In this document: piece after piece, positions 3,443 to 62,419 of the stretch
Layout of the letters: each line of letters opens with the position of its first letter
How positions within the stretch are numbered: the stretch's first letter is position 1
NCBI GenBank assembly: GCA_964016885.1
Contig: OZ024741.1
Coordinates: forward strand, 368,032,001-368,096,000
Length of the DNA stretch: 64,000 nt
Origin: Eledone cirrhosa
Lineage: Eukaryota
Direction: 5' to 3'
Notes under the pieces: generated by a model
Databases searched by the model: none
What the model was told of the DNA's origin: nothing
The model's input: only the letters and a program-made list of their open reading frames with translations
Translations under genes and position numbers: made by a program

Positions 3443-3962
3443 GTGAGTTTTATATTGAATAATAATAATATTCGATTCATTTGCAAGCACACAGCCTCAT
3501 TATGCTATGTTTTTTAGATGACTATCGCCATTCTTTTGTTCTAGCAGTGGTATCTCTTGCCTTAAATTAAAAACTAAATTAGCTTTTGCTCCAACATAGT
3601 GGATATGTAAATGCACTCGTGAGTTTTATATCGGATAAGCCAGCAGTAAAATTGCTTGGTATGCAAATTAGGCTAATCAGCCAATGTATACTTTAGAGAA
3701 TACTATATATTCTCAAGAGTTCTAGTGTGTAACAGAGAAGAGAGATAAACAATCTTGACAAAGAGCAATAACCCAGAAACAATATTATTGTTGATTGTTG
3801 CTCTCTGCCACTGCTAGAACAAAAGGATGACAATAGTCATCTAAAACACATAGCATCATGAGGCTGTTTGCTTGCAAGTGAATCAAATATTATTATTATT
3901 ATTCAATATAAAACTCACAAATGCATTTACGTATCCGCTATTTTAGAGCAAAAACTAATTCT
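3443..3962. repeat. fold-back element with long imperfect inverted arms
   Basis: 3444-3550 is the reverse complement of ~3808-3922; 3572-3628 pairs with ~3908-3962. Confidence 0.75.
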
Positions 3963-12349: not shown

Positions 12350-13148
12350 CCACATACTCCCTCCACAACACTAATATCAAGAAGTCTTGTGAACGTGACC
12401 TGGGCATTACGGTCAGCAGCGATTTGCGTTGGACGAAGCACGTCCCTAAAATTGTCAAGAAGGCCGAAGGTGTCTTAGCATCACCCAGCAAGACCTTTGT
12501 CAGCCGCTCTCCAGCTATCTATTTAAAGCTGTATATAGCTATGGTGCGGCCACACTTAGAATTTGCATCACCAGTCTGGAACCCCTATCTTGATCAGAAC
12601 ATTGACCGCCTGGAAACTGTTCAGAGACGTGCAACCAAGCGAATACCCTCCATCAGGCATCTACCATACTCTGAATGCCTTGCTTCCCTGGGCATGGATA
12701 CATTGAAGCTCCGACGTCTGGCAACTGACTTGGTAAACAACCAAAAAATTATTAGCCATCTAACAACAACCCTGAGTACCTTTTTGATTTCCATGTGTCT
12801 AACACACGTGGGCATGCCCACAAAGTCAGAAAACAGCACAGCTCCCATGACTTTCGGAAACATTTTTTCACGCTCAGAGTTGCTGAAGCATGGAACAAAC
12901 TACCTGCATCGGTTGTTAGCTGTTGAAACACTGCATCCTTTAAAACCTCCATGTTTCCCGAGATTCGCCAACACTACACCTAATATTCCCCCTCCATACA
13001 CATACATACATGTATATCATGACTCATACACTATTCACTTCCCTGACATTTGTATATTATTCTATCTACTATACATGCACCTTTGACGAGTTGTAGTGCA
13101 CCTGAGCACTTTACACAATAATTTCATTATTATTATTATTATTATTAT
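12350..13148 (+). mobile_element. CR1-clade LINE 3' fragment
   Basis: ERDLGI...LYIAMVRPHLEFASPVWNPY...LETVQRRATKRIP; 3' motif GTAGTGCACCTGAGCACT and (ATT)n tail. Confidence 0.9.
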
Positions 13149-16625: not shown

Positions 16626-19473
16626 TCAGAGAGCAGTAAATCAATTACTTATATTAATTATATTAATTACTTGTATGAAACAACAGTTTTGGTCATAAGA
16701 AGGATTAAACTTTGTTGTTCTGGTTTTTCTTCTCTTTTATATGAAATTTTAGACATTTTGTCAGTGGGTAGTTCCAAATTCAAGCTTGATGAATTGACAT
16801 AGTCTTTAGAACATCCCTTAGAATGCTTCACAGTATTCGTTTTAACTCCCTGCATGCTGGGTTCATATCCCTCCAAGGTCAACTTTACTTTTCATCCTTT
16901 TGAAGTACCAGTCCAGTACTAGAGTTAATCCTCCTTCCCCAACTCCTCTTTCTCTGGAAGTATTCAGCTGTGCTTAGATGGGCTCTGCCAAGTTTAAAGT
17001 GCTAAAGAGACACTGTGTAAAATTTGCCTCATTTATTTGCAAACATCTCTAAAGACAACAAGCAGGTCATCTTGTGTGACTTCACTGTGGTTGTAAGTAC
17101 AGAAAATGTGTTAGGTAAGAATGGTACAGGCATTAAAGCCCCTTCCTCAAAGCCTTTAGAATATATGACTTCTCGATCATGAATACTATATTTCATCTTC
17201 CAGACTTTAACATGACAATATAAATGCTTCATAGATAGATGGTAGACAGGTAGGGAGGTAGGTATGTAGGCAGGCTGGTAGGTATGTTAGTGTGTGTGTG
17301 TGCATGCATGCCTGCCTGTGTATTCAACAAATTATCATCTGGGTAAACAAAAAACATGTAGCTGCATAAAACTTAAACTATGGATTGTATATCCTAGTTA
17401 CAACATACATATATGCATTCATGCATACATAGATACATATATATGAAAAGGAAAAAAATCAACTCTTGCTCTCCGCTGCTCCACACACTCTTATTCTATC
17501 TGTTGTATTGAATCAATCAACATTCATAGTCTAAGGAGGAGATTGAAACATCTCTCTCCCCAGTCCTCAGCCAACCACATATTTTCAGATATTTTCCTCC
17601 CTGTTTGCAACAATAAACATCTCTCTCCCCATTTTTCCCAGACCTCAGTCAACCACATATTTTCAGTTATCTTCCTCCCTGATCATCACTTTACCTCCTT
17701 GTGCACTCCCTACACCTCTTTTACCAGATGTTTGTTCATCCATGACTATATCCACCAGAAGAAGTAGTGTTGTAGCATGGTTTCACCTTACCACTACATG
17801 TTCTACCATTTTAAATGGTATTTCTTTAATCAATTGCAAAATCATCAACATCATTGTCATTTAATTCCTGTTTTTCTGGATGGGTTGTCACAGACCATGG
17901 CAGTAGTGAATTGGCACCACTGACCTCTCAGATGGGCTAGGGGCAGCATCTTGCTTCCATATGTAGTTGCACCCTGCAGAATGTGCTGAGTGCATTTTAT
18001 CATGGCACCAGCACCAGGGAGGCTGTCATGTTTTGGACACAACTGAAGAGTCCCCTCAACTCTTTGTTAGGCAAGTTTTCTATAGCTGGATAACCATCTT
18101 AACACCAACTGCTTCACAGAGTGTACTGGGTGAAGTATATACATTTGTAATATCAAAATGAAAAAAAGGGAAAAAATAAAAAAGGGGAAATGAGGAGAGT
18201 AACCCCAAATATTTGGTTGGGCAGTCTCTCAGCTGTGCCCCGCAGACAAGATGGTGAGAGCAGAGAACCATTTAACAATTGGTCGGAAAGCTTCCCAGTG
18301 GTTCATAATCTTCCTATAAAGGTGTGAAAAGCCACACCTGGCACTCATATTTGTATTATTATATTTTTACTTTAAGATTTTCTGTTTTTCTATTTTTCTT
18401 TCTTCTCACACCCACCTTCTCTCACAATCCATCCACATTAGTTGCACACAGACAGACACATATTAGCACCCCACTACACACACACACACACCTGTTAAAG
18501 GCAGACAATTTGTGCTACTTTATTTCATCTAGTTCTCATTGTAGATAGAAAGCAACAGCAGAGTGAGAGGATGAGAGAAGGAGAGCAACAGAGCAGGAGA
18601 GAGAAATAGGGACGGAGAGACAGATAAGAGGGAAAAGATAGAGAGGGGGTAAAAACTTCAGATAGAGGGGAAAGAATGAGAGAAACAGATGGGTGGAGAG
18701 AGAGAGAGAGATGAGGAGAGGGATGGGCAGAGAAGGGGGAGAGAGTGAGTCAAATAAGTGGAAGAGATTGAGAGTGGAATAGAAACAAAGAGGGAGAGAC
18801 AGAAATAGACAGAGACGATGTGGGATATTTGATAGAAATAAAACATGTCAGTTTATGCCAAACATTGATTTTTAGATATTTTGTTTTATTTATTTATATC
18901 TTGTTTTTTTTATGTTCCTGGTTTAGAATAGGGATTTGCTTTGCTTTGGGTGGAAAAGATGGGAAGATGTTATGTGGATGGATGACAGGAAATAAGGGAG
19001 ATGCCCTGGTTATATATGGAAGATATCTGGCGTACACACAATATTTAAACCCTACTTTGATATTGAGTATTTATTCTCACATACATATATAACATATGTG
19101 TGTGTATATATGTGTGCATGTATATGTGTGTGTGTGTGTGTGTGGATTTCTATGTTGGCCTGTGTGAACAGGAAAGGTGAGTCATAGATGTGAGTGTGGA
19201 TGGGGAAGGACTCAGGGATGGGTGGGGAAGATTAATAAAAGAAGGTCCATCCTAGCTTTCCATGCTGACATTGGTTAGATGAGAGAAGGTATGTCAACTG
19301 GGCCAATTGGGGTGGGGTAGCCAGGGAAATTGGGAGTATATTGGCAGTCAGAGACTTAAATGTTCCACCTGTCTGCTTCTTTGGCTTTAACCCTTTAGTA
19401 TTTACATTACTTTATATATATATACTATTGTATTTTCGCAGTAAAGGCTTTATCTTACATAATATCTCACATC

Positions 19474-19768
19474 CATGACTTTCGGAACCATTTTTTCATG
19501 CTCAGAGTTGCTGAAGCATGGAACAAACTCCCGGCATCAGTTGTTAGCTGTCGAGACACTGCATCCTTTAAAACCTCCATGCTTTCTGAAATTCGCCAAA
19601 ACTACACCTGATATCCCCCCTCTGTACACATGCACACATGTATATCATGACTCATACACTATTCACTTCCCTGACATTTGTACATTATTCTACGTACTAT
19701 ACATGCACTTTTGATGAGTTGTAGTGCACCTGAGCACTGTACACAATAATTTCATTATTATTATTATA
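19474..19768 (+). mobile_element. CR1-clade LINE 3' fragment nested in a piggyBac-like MITE
   Basis: Same 3' end as 12845-13148; splits the MITE at ~19387-19911. Confidence 0.85.
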
Positions 19769-32141: not shown

Positions 32142-33254
32142 CTAATGGATACGGTTTAAACTACCAGAACTTTTAGGTCTATAATAGAAGAAAGAATTAG
32201 AAATGGCATGCGGACAGGAAGAAAATATCTCAGATTTTCTATTAAGCAATATGCTCCTAGAGAAAATTATAGAATGGGTCTCTAGGATACAAAGATTACA
32301 GAATTTAGTGTGTGTTGCTAGGTGATTAGAGTGTGCTACTATTCGCCAATTTAGGCTATATGGTATACCAGCCCCTTTTAAATCCCAGATGTGGTGTGCC
32401 AAAGAAGTAGAGTTCTTAAACTTGATATGCTTAAAATTAGAAATATGTGAATTAAACCTAGTTTTAAAAGTATTAGATGTGGAGCCTATATAAGTGCTAC
32501 AAGAAGAATTAGTTTTAACTTCACATGCATAAACAATGTTCCTAGAGAGGCAGTGACCATTTAAAGGGCAGTTATTATTTACTCTACAGTTACACTTCCA
32601 GGTACTAGTGGTTAGCTGATTACGCGATGCATTATTTCTAGGGTTATTATAAGATAAGATCTGCTCGGGCGGTAAGTTATCAATAGAGCTATCTAGATTA
32701 ACAGTACGCAAAGAGGAGTAGCTATCCCTAATTTTCCTATTGTTAGTGCTAGCTAGATGAGAATTAATGTTAGGGGTGGTAGAGAAGGAGAGTTTAATTA
32801 CGTTTTTATTAAATATACCATGATATTTATTAATAGGAGGGAAATTTTTCTCTAAAATAGAAAAGAAAGACCTAGGGATATTAGTTAATACTTCATGATC
32901 AAAAGGCGGGTTAAAGTAAGTATTGAGTCTCCTCCTATTCTTAGCTTTACTATCTCTACCGTGATCTGGTATCCTATTAATAGGATCAGGGTTAATACGA
33001 GGACCAGTTGAATTAACACTATTAGAAGCAGTTAAAACATTACCACTGGGTGAACGTTCAGAGCATCTATCCTGCTCCCTAGAACTGATCTCGAAATGTG
33101 TACCATTAGACTCACTAATCCGACTACTATTTCGGTAGCTAAACTTGGGGTTCGGTTTGGATATATCTATAATATTTCTATGATTCCTATGTTTTCTACT
33201 CCCATTCAAGGCCATATTATGGGATATTACGTTATTATGGGTAGTCGGAGTCAT
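32142..33254 (-). CDS. PLE linker + GIY-YIG endonuclease (RT lost by 5' truncation)
   Basis: YFNPPF...IFNKNVIKLSFS; CNC..CPLNGHCL..NIVY..YIGST..FKTRFNSH..TSLAHHIW..CNLCILE..LLNRKSE..CPH. Confidence 0.8.
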   Translation of the reverse strand: MTPTTHNNVISHNMALNGSRKHRNHRNIIDISKPNPKFSYRNSSRISESNGTHFEISSREQDRCSERSPSGNVLTASNSVNSTGPRINPDPINRIPDHGRDSKAKNRRRLNTYFNPPFDHEVLTNIPRSFFSILEKNFPPINKYHGIFNKNVIKLSFSTTPNINSHLASTNNRKIRDSYSSLRTVNLDSSIDNLPPEQILSYNNPRNNASRNQLTTSTWKCNCRVNNNCPLNGHCLSRNIVYACEVKTNSSCSTYIGSTSNTFKTRFNSHISNFKHIKFKNSTSLAHHIWDLKGAGIPYSLNWRIVAHSNHLATHTKFCNLCILETHSIIFSRSILLNRKSEIFSSCPHAISNSFFYYRPKSSGSLNRIH

Positions 33255-33639
33255 TCCAAGGTTGTCCTCCTTATAATGTATTTTACCAGAGTAACCAGAG
33301 TCAGCTAGGGCGTTATTATAATACTCTGCATGTGAATTAAAGATTCCTATATCCTAGCATTTTTCGGCTCTGTTGTATTACATTGAGCTATACCCTATAC
33401 TGTCATCTCTATAATACGATGAGTGTGTTTTACTCCAACGCACTCTAGTATTTTAATTCTTATATATATATATATATATATAAAATGTAGAATTCTAATA
33501 TCAATTCTCAAAGGAGAGTAGAGAAATAGACTTATAGAGTGTACTTGCCAGCTTTACAGAGAAGGGATAGCTCTATGCTTATATCATACATATAAGAGTT
33601 AAAAGAAGATAGAGGTTTAAGCGTGGAAAAAATTAGTGC

Positions 33640-35754: not shown

Positions 35755-36335
35755 AAATATTTATTAAAATAACAGATTAAAGTTTAAGCAAAGAATCGCT
35801 GCTTTCACCCTTAACGGGATCTTCTGAAACTAAAAGAAATCAATCTGTGAATGCAGAAGTAAATATTTCGAAAAAAGTTGCAACCAAAAGAAAACAGGAA
35901 GACGATACTTTGGTTCGTGAAGACGTTCCCTGGCAAGGCAAAACCTCCTTTGTGGTATAAATGGAGTCATTAGACTAATATTCTATTTAGGAAACCGAAT
36001 GATTCTTGGCTTCGGAGTTAAGAATAATGTAAATAAATTAATTGAACGAAAATGACAGAGGTTATTATAGTCTAATGACTCCATTTATACCATAAATGTG
36101 GTTTTGTCTTTGTGCGTAATTGTTTTCATCGCTCCACATAACGACATATTATCTTTGCTTTTTTCCGTTCATTGCCAGGGAACGTCTTCACGAACCAAAG
36201 TATCGTCTTCCTGTTTTCCTTCGGTTGCAACGTTTTTCGAAATATTTACTTCTGCGTTCACAGATTGATTTTTTAGTTTCACAAGATCCTGTTAAGGGTG
36301 AAAGCAACGATTCTTTGTTTAAACTTTAATCTGTT
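35755..36335. repeat. fold-back element, ~200-bp inverted arms
   Basis: 35775-35980 pairs with 36063-36335; one arm end also at 23126-23204. Confidence 0.85.
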
Positions 36336-45517: not shown

Positions 45518-45944
45518 TTTCAAATGTTATATGTATTTAGAGGGCCTCTTTTTCTTTTCTTTTCTCTTAAGCACCCTGTTTCAGATTATAAGACTGGAAC
45601 CTGAGAAGGGCCAAAAATTTAATTTTATTTATTATTAGACATAAAATGTTTTGCATAAACCCTTTCATTACCATATTTCTAATGAAAGACTGCCTCACTG
45701 TTTCAAATATTTTTTTTAAATAATCAAGTTTTTGGAGGGATTTAGTAATATAACTAACTTCCTCCTTATTAAGCCAATGTTTAGAGCATAACTTAACAAA
45801 ACTTCTTCTATAGAAGGGTTTTAGATAAATATAAACATTTTAAAACAAATAGTTTTGTATCATAGAACCAGAGGCAGTATCTGGTGGTTGGTATTGTTAA
45901 TAGATAAAACATATCTTATGGTTTTTGTATCCTATCCTGGTTTA

Positions 45945-46755
45945 TAATAATAATGAAATTATTGTGTACAGTGCTCAGGTGCACTACAACTCATCAAAGG
46001 TGCATGTATAGTACATAGAATAATGTACAAATGTCAGGAAAATAAACAGTGTATGAGTCATGATATAATAACAATAACAATAATGAAATATTGTGCACAG
46101 TGCCCAGGTGCACCACAACCCATCAAAAAAGTGCATGTACAGTACATAGGGCAATGCACAAACATCAGTAAAATGAACAGTGCACACATGTGTGCATGTG
46201 TATGGAAGGGGCACATCAGGTGTAGTTTTGGCGTATTTCGGGAAGCATGAGTGTCTTAAAGGATGCAGTGTCTCGGCAGCTAACAATTGACGCAGGCAGT
46301 TCCATGCTTCAGCAACTCTGAGCGTGAAAAAATGTCTGCGAAAGTCATGGGAGCTGTGCTGTTTTCTTATCTTGTAGGCATGTCCACGTGTGTTAGACAC
46401 ATGGAGATCAAAGAGGCGCTCAGGGTTGCAGTTGGCGAGATGGTTAAAAACTTTGTGGGTATTCACCAAGTCCATTGCCAGACGTCGGAGCTTCAATGAA
46501 TCCATGCCCAGGGAAGCAAGGCGTTCAGAGTATGGTAGGTGTCTGATGGAGGGTATGCGCTTGGTTGCACGTCTCTGAACAGTTTCCAGGAGGTCAATGT
46601 TCCAAGCAAGATAGGGGTTCCAGACTGATGATGCGAATTCCAAGTGTGGTCGCACCATAGCTGTATACAGTTTTAAATAGATGGCTGGAGAGCGGCTAAC
46701 AAAGGTCTTGCTGAGTGATGCCAAGACACCCTCGGCCTTCTTGACAATCTTAGAT
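45945..46755 (-). mobile_element. CR1-clade LINE 3' fragment with duplicated 3'UTR
   Basis: ORF 45984-46724 (LYTAMVRPHLEFASSVWNPY...); two tandem 3'UTR/(ATT)n ends. Confidence 0.9.
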
Positions 46756-52194: not shown

Positions 52195-53034
52195 AAAATC
52201 AGGTAGTAACATGTGCTTATGTTGTATTTGACTAAATAGAATTAGTCTGTTAATTGGGATTTTAAAAAACCCTCTGAATGGAAAAAAGGATGAGTATTGA
52301 CGTACATGGGACGCAAATCCATGGGCCAATATTCACCATACTCTGAACGCCTTGCTTCCCTGGGCATGGATTCATTGAAGCTCCGACGTCTGGCAATGGA
52401 CTTGGTGAATACCCACAAAGTTTTTAACCATCTCGCCAACTGCAACCCTGAGCGCCTCTTTGATCTCCATGTGTCTAACACACGTGGACATGCCTACAAG
52501 ATAAGAAAACAGCACAGCTCCCATGACTTTCGCAGACATTTTTTCACGCTCAGAGTTGCTGAGGCATGGAACAAACTGCCTGCGTCAATTGTTAGCTGCC
52601 GAGACACTGCATCCTTTAAGACACTCATGCTTCCCGAAATACGCCAAAACTACACCTGATGTGCCCCTTCCATACACATGCACACATGTGTGTATCATAA
52701 CTCGTGCACTGTTCATTTTACTGATGTTTGTGCATTGCCCTATGTACTGTACATGCACTTTTTTGATGGGTTGTGGTGCACCTGGGCACTGTGCACAATA
52801 TTTCATTATTGTTATTATATCATGACTCATACACTGTTTATTTTCCTGACATTTATACATTATTCTATGTACTATACATGCACCTTTGATGAGTTGTAGT
52901 GCACCTGAGCACTGTACACAATAATTTCATTATTATTATTATATTTTTCATTCAGAGGGTTTTTTAAAATTCCAACTAACAGACTAATTCTATTTAGTCA
53001 AATACGACATAAGCACATGTTACTACCTGATTTT
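52195..53034. repeat. fold-back element (~90-bp arms) enclosing a CR1 fragment
   Basis: 52195-52285 pairs with 52944-53034. Confidence 0.85.
52335..52942 (+). mobile_element. CR1-clade LINE 3' fragment with duplicated 3'UTR (inverted near-twin of 45945-46755)
   Basis: Identical translated stretch PYSERLASLG...LRVAEAWN and the same double tail. Confidence 0.9.
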
Positions 53035-59599: not shown

Positions 59600-59668
59600 A
59601 AATAATAATAATAATAATGAAATTATTGTGTACAGTGCTCAGGTGCACAACAACTCATCAAAGGTGCA
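59600..59668 (-). mobile_element. CR1 3' tail only
   Basis: (AAT)n + gaaattattgtgtacagtgctcaggtgcac. Confidence 0.75.
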
Positions 59669-62419
59669 GTATTTAGTTACATCTCTTGTATAGTATTTAG
59701 TGTATAGTATTTAGTTACATCTCTTTGTGTTCAAATCCTAGTAGTGTTGACTTGGCCTGTCAATAAAGTAAATTCCAATTATCTATGCTCCCTCACAACA
59801 AAGTTGTAGCATTGTACCAAGTATTAGAAACCAGCTGCAATTCTATTGAAGTTGGCAGAAACAGTGAAGCACCAAACTAAGTAACATCATTCAATAGACA
59901 TTGCACCTCTAAGTGATCATTTGAGATGTTAGAAATAGCAGTCAAATCTCCCTCAAATTACACTTTACTATATTAAAAAAATGTAGTCTTTGATATGTAA
60001 TAAAAATGGGGTGATTATGGCTGGAATACTTTTTATTGTAGGGCAACATCTTTTATTGGATCTTATTGGAAGCTGACTTTGCCTTTCAACCATTCAGGGA
60101 CCCCAAAAAGGAGTAGTCATCTATTGAACTTGAGAGATTAAGGACAAATCTAGTACTGAGGCTGGTTCAGTAAGGATTAAACTCCTAAGTAACTATACCT
60201 CCTAGCCTTTACAATTTGTGGTTCTGTACCAATGTATGAAGTCGATATAATTACTGGGACACAGTTAGTGTTTTTCTCCTCGGATCCCAGTTTGTTTTAA
60301 AGTATTTTAGATTTCCCAGGAAATGCCTTTTGTCATGAGAATACACATAAACAATTCCATATGCACACATTCAGATACATACCCAGACATACATAACTAC
60401 TTGTAAACACACACATATATAAATATATATGCATACACTCATATACCATACATTGTACATACACACAAATCTTTTAATAAAATTGAAAGCTGTTTGAAGT
60501 TTGTATCAAAACAATTTTACAATACAGGAGTGGGTACATTTTTAAACAACAGGAAATTATAAGCTACATTTTTAAAATATTGACAGTAACTATTACATCT
60601 TGGGATGACAGCCAATTTTTCTCTGACTCCCAGGATAAGCAGAGTCGTCAGAACATTAAATAGAATGTTTTGCAGTATTTGTTCAAGCTCTCTGTGCCCT
60701 AAGTTCAAATTCCGCCATGGTCAACCTTGCTTTTCATCCTTTCAAGGTAAAAAAAAAAAAGTGCCAGTCCAGTACTGAGGTCAATTCTCCCTGTATGTGT
60801 CCTTTCTCCTCGTATCTCTCTTCCTCTGGAAAAAAAAAATCGTCTTAGATCAGAGCTGGAGGTATGTCACAACATCATCCCTATGACTCCATTAGGAATT
60901 ACAGGAGCCTCATATGAGAAACCCTAGATAGAGCACAGCACTGGTCACTAGATTGAAGCCATCGACCCTTCAGTCTGTGAACTGTTGATCGCCCACTCCA
61001 CCCCCACCCCAACCATGTCAGTTCAGTGAGCTGTGATATGAGGGAACCAATTTTAGCGTCAACATACAATAGGGAACATTATGAAATAAGATCTTCTATG
61101 TGATCATTCGACCTTGTAGAAATAGCAGCCAAATTACTTTGAAAAAGAAGGGACACATTATTATGATATTCTCCTAGATACACAATGCCAGAAAATAAAG
61201 CAAGATTGTCACAGTTTGAATACCTTTCATTAGGGTTGACTGGGGACTAAACAACAACTACTAATGCAAAGAAAGCTCTGTGTTTTATTTTTTCTTCTTT
61301 GAAATGTAAATTGACCCTTATTGAGTCATTATTTCATCACAAGATGGTCACTTGAATACTTTCCATTGATCATATGTTTGGAGCAATAACAATAACAATT
61401 ACCCTTTTTGATACCAATCCACCCAAAACTGGCTTTGGTTCATAATTTTATATAAGAACTATATGCTTAGTTAATATCTTAGTAATGAAATAATTAATTG
61501 AAATAGTGCATATCATTAGAAATACAGTCACAAAAGGATTGAAATAATATAAAGAATTTTTTTTTTTTGTCTTTGTAAATTAATCCTGGATTGTTATATC
61601 ATAACAAGAAGGTTACAACAACAAAATAATGTAAAGAAAATTTGTTTTTTATCTTTGAAGTGTAAATTGGCCCTAACAACTGTTTCTGTGACATCAGCTT
61701 GAATACCTTTGATCATAGACTTTCTCATTGAAATATTCTTAAGGAAGGTTTTTCTTTTATTCCAAGGTAGCACACCATGGCATCCAAAGAAGAGAATGTG
61801 GGGAAAAGATCTGCACACTCAATCACACTCCACAACAGGATTTTTTAGGCAAGCCAATATGCAGCATTGCCACAAGTGATAGTGAGGCTAAGACTGGAAT
61901 AACCAAGCACTCTTGCAGGCATTCCTTGATACCCTGGCAAGGTGAGGTATTAGGTCTTTGAAATGTAAATTTACCCAAACAACTGTTACTGAATCATTAT
62001 TTAGTTTCAAAAGACCTTCTGTTAGTTACCTTTTACATGTGCAATTGACTAATAGCATAAAACATAAGTGGAGGGAGATGGAACAACAGAACTATCTAGA
62101 ATAAACGCTGGGTTGTAAAATATTGTATCTTGGATATTTACAATGCTATCACTTTTTCTCTTTTTTTTAATTAGTTGTTTAAATTTTATTAATCCAGAAA
62201 AATAATGTAACTTATACCTATGTCCTTTATAACATTTTATAATATATTTGTTAAAATTTATAAAAGATTATATAACTTTTTTTTTAAATATTAAATTTAA
62301 ATTAAAAGGGTTAACCAAAAAACAGGAAAAACATTTACCTTGGATCTTTCTACAGAAAATTCTGTATCAACCTTTTTTATGTATAAATATACATGTATGT
62401 ATATTATGTGTGTACCCCC

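Follow-up and report, generated by a model that had tools for sequence, protein, structure and literature searches.

Stepwise, strand-specific A>G change in the inner of two tandem 3' tails of a CR1-like LINE family from Eledone cirrhosa, with RNA editing as its probable source

The window analysed here, a 64,000-nucleotide stretch of the Eledone cirrhosa genome (GCA_964016885.1, contig OZ024741.1, positions 368,032,001 to 368,096,000, forward strand), contains a 5'-truncated copy of a CR1-like long interspersed element (LINE) that ends in two tandem 3' untranslated regions (UTRs), the inner of which differs from the outer mainly by A>G changes on the sense strand of the element. What changed these adenosines, and how did the changes come to be inherited? 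A first-pass annotation, made from the letters alone, had proposed that a single transcript hyper-edited by ADAR was retro-copied into the genome and later gained a fresh, unedited tail. We find that the A>G pattern of the double-tailed form is real, family-wide and statistically strong, and that the changes were gained stepwise over several rounds, confined to the inner unit and clustered on single copies. As for the cause that we infer, ADAR editing of the inner tail, copied back by repeated retrotransposition and tolerated once a second tail served the reverse transcriptase (RT), is probably the explanation on the sequence evidence at hand.

The focal copy and its relatives in the window, with positions counted from the first letter of the window, are as follows.

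52335..52659, plus strand: 3' end of open reading frame 2 (ORF2) of the 5'-truncated CR1-like LINE, stop codon at 52657-52659, 98% identity to the minus-strand copy
52660..52816, plus strand: inner 3'UTR with an (ATT)n remnant; the part repeated in the outer unit starts at 52692
52663, 52704, 52732, 52737, 52749, 52755, 52769, 52775, 52785, 52793 and 52811, plus strand: A>G changes of the inner unit against its single-tailed predecessor (alignment to the majority of subfamily S_late, introduced below)
52720 and 52699, plus strand: other inner-unit changes against that predecessor, C>A and a private G>A, respectively
52817..52942, plus strand: outer 3'UTR with the terminal (ATT)n tail, resembling older single-tailed subfamilies
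52839 and 52855, plus strand: outer-unit changes, a fixed C>T and a private G>A, respectively, with no A>G fixed in the lineage
45944..46754, minus strand: second, independent double-tailed copy of the same young sub-lineage, tails at 45944-46215
19473..19768, plus strand: older single-tailed copy with an unedited-type tail at 19616-19767, which served as the old-subfamily query
12446..13142, plus strand: older single-tailed copy with an unedited-type tail at 12988-13139
59600..59672, minus strand: short tail fragment of unedited type
691-794: additional single tail of unedited type

In a global alignment of the outer to the inner unit of the focal copy, the substitutions are 13 A>G, 3 T>C, 2 C>T, 1 C>A and 1 G>A, with two indels besides. 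One of the 13 reflects the private G>A of the outer unit (52855) and another is the first aligned base (52692); the 11 that remain agree with the manual count of the first-pass annotation, which had also recognised the tandem tails and the single, unedited-type tails elsewhere in the window. Compared with the S_late majority, the focal inner unit likewise has 11 A>G, with 1 C>A and 1 private G>A. In the minus-strand copy, every inner G of the focal copy recurs within the aligned part, as had been noted. Over about 600 nt, 2 substitutions and 3 indels separate the two copies, whose flanks are different; one of the indels, a 14-nt deletion in the inner unit of the minus copy that is also present in many genomic copies, takes out the G at 52704 along with the private A at 52699.

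The pattern extends across the genome. In searches of the species' own assembly (3.0 Gb, at least 28 large contigs), a G-rich 35-mer of the inner unit has 297 exact matches; all 30 of the 30 loci examined were double-tailed, as were 14 more. A pattern search for double-tail junctions with G at site 93 of the inner unit returned 1,493 genome-wide (control pattern, 0), and 104 junctions have A93, many of them within tandem arrays. Because of these 35-mer matches and junctions, the focal and minus copies cannot be put down to one local duplication, an origin that the first-pass annotation had allowed for. Target-site duplications, several of which are simple repeats, could be recognised in no more than 21 of 128 copies, so the independence of insertions rests on the flanks, which are distinct in 174 of 174 sampled double-tailed copies. 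Assembly error is likewise disfavoured as the source of the double tail, since contigs from two studies carry it: those of run X19 cover the entire stretch, and one of X22 spans both tail units.

Three copies with a common 5' start are about 5.3 kb long, and two of them, L358 and L354, retain an ORF2 that is open over about 960 codons. The 957-residue ORF2 product of L358 matches PF03372, PF14529 and PF00078 above cut-off, that is, endonuclease and RT domains, and an upstream ORF1 frame of 450-500 codons in the 5.3-kb copies matches no Pfam family. The elements end in (ATT)n, not poly(A), and are frequently 5'-truncated, with a median length of 1,052 nt among the 128 copies with the 5' junction in view. 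Named RT homologues are stork, turtle, Hydra and fluke proteins at 31-37% identity. Bird and turtle LINEs belong to CR1, and the homologues are in line with a tentative placement there. Two further copies, L348 and L342, are 89-94% like other full-length copies in their 5' regions and 96-98% in their 3' parts; their 5' ends are likely recombinant.

To which lineage do the two tail units belong? Our sample comprised the first 340 loci minus 20 duplicates and 13 array or composite loci, leaving 307: 174 double-tailed, 95 single-tailed S-type (from which L251, an interrupted double, was later removed), 30 old single-tailed and 8 unassigned. Loci L361-L490 served targeted questions only, and haplotype tallies are not frequencies, as DNA searches favour close relatives and some targeted rare states. 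ORF2 haplotypes and trees yield a ladder of subfamilies whose divergence from their own majority is 3.8% for the old single-tailed form, 2.0% for S_early, 1.2% for S_late (both single-tailed), 1.3% for D_early, 0.7% for D_mid (both double-tailed) and 0.24-0.34% for the young sub-lineages. D_early is nested in S_late (98/92 in the ORF2 tree, whose bootstrap is not settled). The single-tailed S subfamily numbers about 1,405 copies with an intact diagnostic motif. All 30 of the 30 best matches to young-type ORF2 are double-tailed, as are 131 of 131 copies with mid or young ORF2 states; in this sample, the double-tailed form replaced its single-tailed parent.

On sequence grounds, the inner unit is a descendant of the single-tailed S predecessor, which explains most of the inner/outer differences other than A>G, and not of the outer unit, the ancestor that the first-pass annotation had used for comparison. 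The S subfamily already had three A>G, the C>T and two T>C of the inner/outer differences. The outer unit is identical to the majority of older single-tailed relatives and was therefore captured, not duplicated from the inner unit. A young donor of the outer unit was not found with one query; the closest relatives are 93-94% alike. Short units also sit inside the (ATT)n tails of older copies and of a short interspersed element (SINE; L134, L190, L203), which makes insertion into an (ATT)n tail a plausible route of capture.

With this ladder in place, the changes can be polarised. From the old form to S_early, ORF2 changed in a balanced way (20 A>G, 23 T>C, 23 G>A, 19 C>T) and the UTR in a mixed one (4 A>G, 4 C>T, 2 T>C, 1 G>A). 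From S_late to D_early, the UTR gained 7 A>G and 1 C>A in 148 nt, and ORF2 2 changes in 1,488 nt; in the D_early majority, A became G at 7 of 37 UTR adenosines versus 1 of 395 in ORF2 (Fisher p=1.5e-7). Of the two young branches, one later gained A>G at sites 101 and 113 and the second at -29, 77 and 101; the (ATT)n remnant also gained A>G. Late G's specific to sub-lineages stand at -29, 77, 101, 113, 119 and 125. Between S_late and the youngest sub-lineage, the inner UTR shows 10 A>G and 1 other change (the tail remnant past the compared columns excluded), and ORF2 shows 25 changes (8 A>G, 5 T>C, 5 G>A, 3 C>T and 4 transversions), with 5 of 99 third-position A's changed to G. In the outer unit, 0 of 32 A's became fixed as G and one C>T was fixed. 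Overall, 14 A>G versus 0 T>C were fixed in the inner unit after S (p=3e-6), which bears out the strand-specific excess suspected in the first-pass annotation.

Private non-CpG changes in coding sequence are symmetric in all six pairs (88 A>G versus 86 T>C) and contain no A>G runs, which argues against a general error of the RT or of RNA polymerase; singleton spectra by region likewise reveal no general A>G excess. That T>C was never fixed in the inner unit after S argues against GC-biased conversion. Double-tailed copies exist with 3, 4, 5, 6 and 7 of the early G states in many A/G combinations, and early double-tailed copies contain all four gametes at the site pairs 12/93 and 83/93. A G at outer site 12, found in 11 of 173 copies, was considered as a recurrent hot spot and dropped, as the donor-type family itself varies at this site (11 of 30 loci) and the G tracks sub-lineages.

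Several features of the changed adenosines resemble ADAR editing. A 5' T precedes 10 of 14 changed A's versus 9 of 29 unchanged ones (p=0.02), in agreement with the neighbour preference first noticed in the focal copy, and all three A's that stand before G changed. For the S-type unit, folding predicts an imperfect hairpin some 100 nt long (z=-4.2 and -3.0) that takes in most of the changed A's; no such hairpin is predicted for the outer and old units (outer z about 0). In 16 early copies, 14 of 85 triplets of the inner (ATT)n are GTT, in 6 patterns and with no other variant, compared with 0 of 64 in their terminal tails and 2 of 364 in those of S copies. The changes also cluster. All 36 matches to the G45/A63 pattern comprise 15 single-tailed S copies, 1 single-tailed D-type copy and 20 double-tailed copies; the 15 S copies carry further A>G at 12 of 478 A sites, versus 12 of 3,790 in 121 copies with A45 (p=3e-6), a clustering for which shared ancestry or conversion might still account. 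The G45 S copies with enough ORF2 to be placed (9, L181 among them) are interspersed with A45 copies at several levels of that tree (bootstrap again not settled).

Taken together, these observations suggest the following course. A lineage of the CR1-like LINE would have gained a second, unedited-type tail behind its own, either by a short 5'-truncated insertion into its (ATT)n tail or by a template jump. ADAR, the presumptive enzyme, would act in the germline or early embryo and edit the structured S-type unit infrequently, with its edits clustered. As long as the S unit was the terminal tail, edited RNAs may have been copied poorly or have founded no lineages. After tail capture, the ORF2 protein would use the outer unit, by analogy with the stringent recognition described for other LINEs (PMC4176376), and edits in the inner tail would no longer be filtered out. 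The element's RT would read inosine as G and pass it into new master copies, round upon round; the founder may already have had G40, G45 and G57. A bolder extension, which we regard as possible but doubtful, is that ADAR restricted the LINE through its hairpin tail, that the non-hairpin second tail was an escape, and that the freed inner tail has since recorded germline editing while the double form replaced its parent.

A number of results weigh against ADAR write-back or narrow it. Taken as a whole, the single-tailed S UTR is not asymmetric, with A>G at 3.2 per kb of A and T>C at 2.5 per kb of T, and G45 occurs in 15 of about 1,420 S copies (1.1%) versus about 0.56% per T>C control site, so write-back per insertion must be rare; singleton A>G in the inner unit is not raised either (1 of 4,596 A sites in 174 double-tailed copies). 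A 5' G precedes 2 of 14 changed and 3 of 29 unchanged A's, and the ADAR-type depletion is not seen in these small numbers. Sites 113, 116, 119 and 125 (4 of 14) fall beyond the predicted long hairpin, within which three of the early sites stand unpaired. Antisense transcripts of many copies pairing with the unit could cover the four sites outside the hairpin; such pairing would also reach the outer unit, which would then need selection to stay clean. The terminal-tail control for GTT is weakened in that terminal tails may be rebuilt at every insertion. Finally, conversion or recombination does occur, as back-states with A57 and A63 in mid and young copies (L423, L434, L440) and chimeric array units attest; this makes the four-gamete argument weaker, and the ORF2 tree carries the bootstrap caveat given above.

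Contigs of presumed-RNA runs from other organisms (X1, X2, X3, X4, X7) were also considered. They contain related tails, but editing is inseparable from species differences there, and they were set aside. One of them, X1, has G at about 95% of depth at 52898, the outer equivalent of inner site 83; as a lead only, this could be independent fixation or RNA editing.

How do other explanations fare on the same data? The single hyper-edited transcript with a fresh tail gained afterwards accords with seven A>G on one short branch, with the single-tailed copies that carry the G40, G45 and G57 triad (L419, L471, L472), and with the finding that a fully unedited S_late inner unit joined to a standard outer unit was not found among the examined loci of the A93-junction and G45/A63 sets. 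It conflicts with double-tailed copies that have only 3 or 4 early G's (L438, L417) and with the G's specific to later sub-lineages. The changes accrued over rounds, and one transcript is refuted as the sole cause; editing before tail capture survives for about three sites, those of the triad, and as a full account the idea is improbable. What stands of the original proposal, besides the A>G excess of the inner unit, its 5' T preference and the many independent insertions, is a second tail of unedited type, which comes from a different subfamily. A mixed set of alternatives comprises a subfamily that was G-rich from the start, conversion biased towards GC, correction of a palindrome, a local duplication, or an error of assembly. 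The first of these, which the first-pass annotation had named as a refuting case, does hold for the three A>G, the C>T and the two T>C differences inherited from single-tailed S, which were fixed while the ORF2 spectrum was balanced; the set is contradicted for the 11 post-S sites, where the G-rich state is derived and nested in S_late, T>C was never fixed, pairs were loosened rather than perfected, and the distinct flanks and the X19 and X22 contigs speak for genuine insertions. For those sites we consider all of these highly implausible.

Two further possibilities leave RNA editing out altogether. In one, the RT or a gap-filling polymerase misinserts G opposite T in the structured inner unit, a local and strand-specific copying error. 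The signature of polymerase eta-like enzymes is WA>WG, and such an error would produce the same A>G polarity and TA preference, would need no RNA modification and could cluster on one molecule. It would leave unexplained that ORF2 has neither asymmetry nor A>G runs, that the outer unit, copied in the same reaction, fixed no A>G and has only a mild private excess (12 versus 4, p=0.009, site 12 excluded), and that both GAG sites changed, GAG not being a WA motif; we rate it unlikely. In the other, which we find a little less likely again, ordinary DNA mutations were selected, in that master copies with an inactivated inner tail, a stabler fold or fewer UpA spread better. The low per-insertion A>G rates and the replacement of the single-tailed form fit such selection, and two ORF2 changes still allow several quick selected steps. 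But the observed A>G are no more stabilising than the unobserved ones (p=0.25), A>G makes up only 16 of the 107 single changes that would stabilise the fold (most are T>G or T>A), and six observed A>G turn A-U pairs into G-U in the predicted long hairpin. These results argue against selection for folding and also against palindrome correction, and neither tail disabling nor UpA removal would need A>G alone, compared with fixed changes of 14 to 1. ADAR write-back over several rounds thus stays the probable reading.

The locus and family hold further structures. A second small family (L134, L190, L203, L365) has an old-type unit followed by another unit, and L190 and L203 have both haplotype and junction in common. 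A tRNA-like SINE and the tail units insert into one another's (ATT)n ends. The 115-130 nt tail unit also forms tandem arrays, mainly on small contigs and with up to about 17 copies; the array units are inner/outer chimeras, and the arrays are an incipient satellite. The focal LINE copy lies between inverted arms that are locus-specific and outside the family pattern; a similar element with a tRNA-like centre occurs upstream of the tail array in L144, and the focal arms may be those of a foldback element in which the insertion replaced the centre. These features and the other elements of the window are listed here.

52195..52285 and 52944-53034: left and right arms of a 91-nt inverted repeat (96%) with the focal LINE copy between them
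G000 C25:12767514-12769524, C20:10051076-10051903 and C27:21919989-21921060: tail-unit tandem arrays in the genome
23562-26933, minus strand: 1,123-codon open frame with endonuclease and RT and a weak PHD-finger match after the RT, presumably a near-intact RTE-type LINE
32142-33353, minus strand: 403-codon frame with no Pfam match, the end of which may resemble a GIY-YIG endonuclease of Penelope-like elements
3458-3900 and 35834-36274: two elements in which inverted arms of 93-103 nt enclose about 250 nt, similar to miniature inverted-repeat transposable elements

The 1,123-codon frame is comparable to the octopus RTE described in the part of PMC9115989 drawn on here, which does not mention CR1.

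Human L1 is reportedly restricted by ADAR1 and by ADAR2. Such restriction resembles the present case in that ADAR acts on a LINE ribonucleoprotein, and differs in that the ADAR1 effect is editing-independent, at least as stated in the consulted part of PMC5974252. ADAR occurs in metazoans, with 5' G depletion reported for it, and octopus has the highest ADAR hyper-editing, which is heavy also in chicken CR1 3' ends (PMC5625713); in octopus and squid, repeat-directed editing takes place outside the nervous system (PMC9068888). These cases share abundant LINE 3' ends and the same change with our family. They differ in concerning RNA only, and the portions of PMC5625713 and PMC9068888 used here report no fixation in a genomic subfamily. 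A search by title and abstract start, in mostly non-subscription literature, found no report of ADAR-type A>G fixed in a LINE subfamily, which is not proof of absence.

A close genomic parallel is that of APOBEC-edited vertebrate LTR (long terminal repeat) retrotransposons, in which a strand-biased, clustered host-deaminase signature is fixed in genomic copies and is read against the subfamily ancestor with the complementary change as control (PMC4866542, PMC2873906). There, according to the sections cited, the change is G>A on DNA during reverse transcription and was absent in 19 invertebrates, whereas the Eledone family shows A>G in a non-LTR element, in one 160-nt unit only, inherited through a propagating master lineage. 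ADAR-hypermutated RNA viruses show that clustered A>G becomes heritable when the virus's own polymerase copies edited RNA; those are viral genomes (PMC5075021, in the part considered), unlike the approximately 1,500 chromosomal copies of this LINE. In the stringent LINE ZfL2, the ORF2 protein binds its own 3' stem-loop, and the 3' tail, with stem-loop and microsatellite end, is of the kind that the ORF2 protein here would need; the part of PMC4176376 relied on describes no tandem tails with a mutating inner unit, and tail recognition in the present family is proposed by analogy.

That ADAR edits are written back into genomes through retrotransposition and shape retroelement subfamilies has been assumed, and a 2016 review, in the part available, left their role in Alu subfamily evolution undetermined (PMC4982230). 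The Eledone family offers a dated series with built-in controls, namely ORF2, the outer tail and about 1,400 unedited predecessors, and it singles out the adenosines (sites 12, 40, 45, 57, 63, 83 and 93) at which editing would be expected. If the editing reading is false, a sharply local, strand-specific mutation process is still to be explained; if it is true, it would mean that editing takes place in this animal's germline or early embryo and that there is a route from RNA editing to inherited DNA change.
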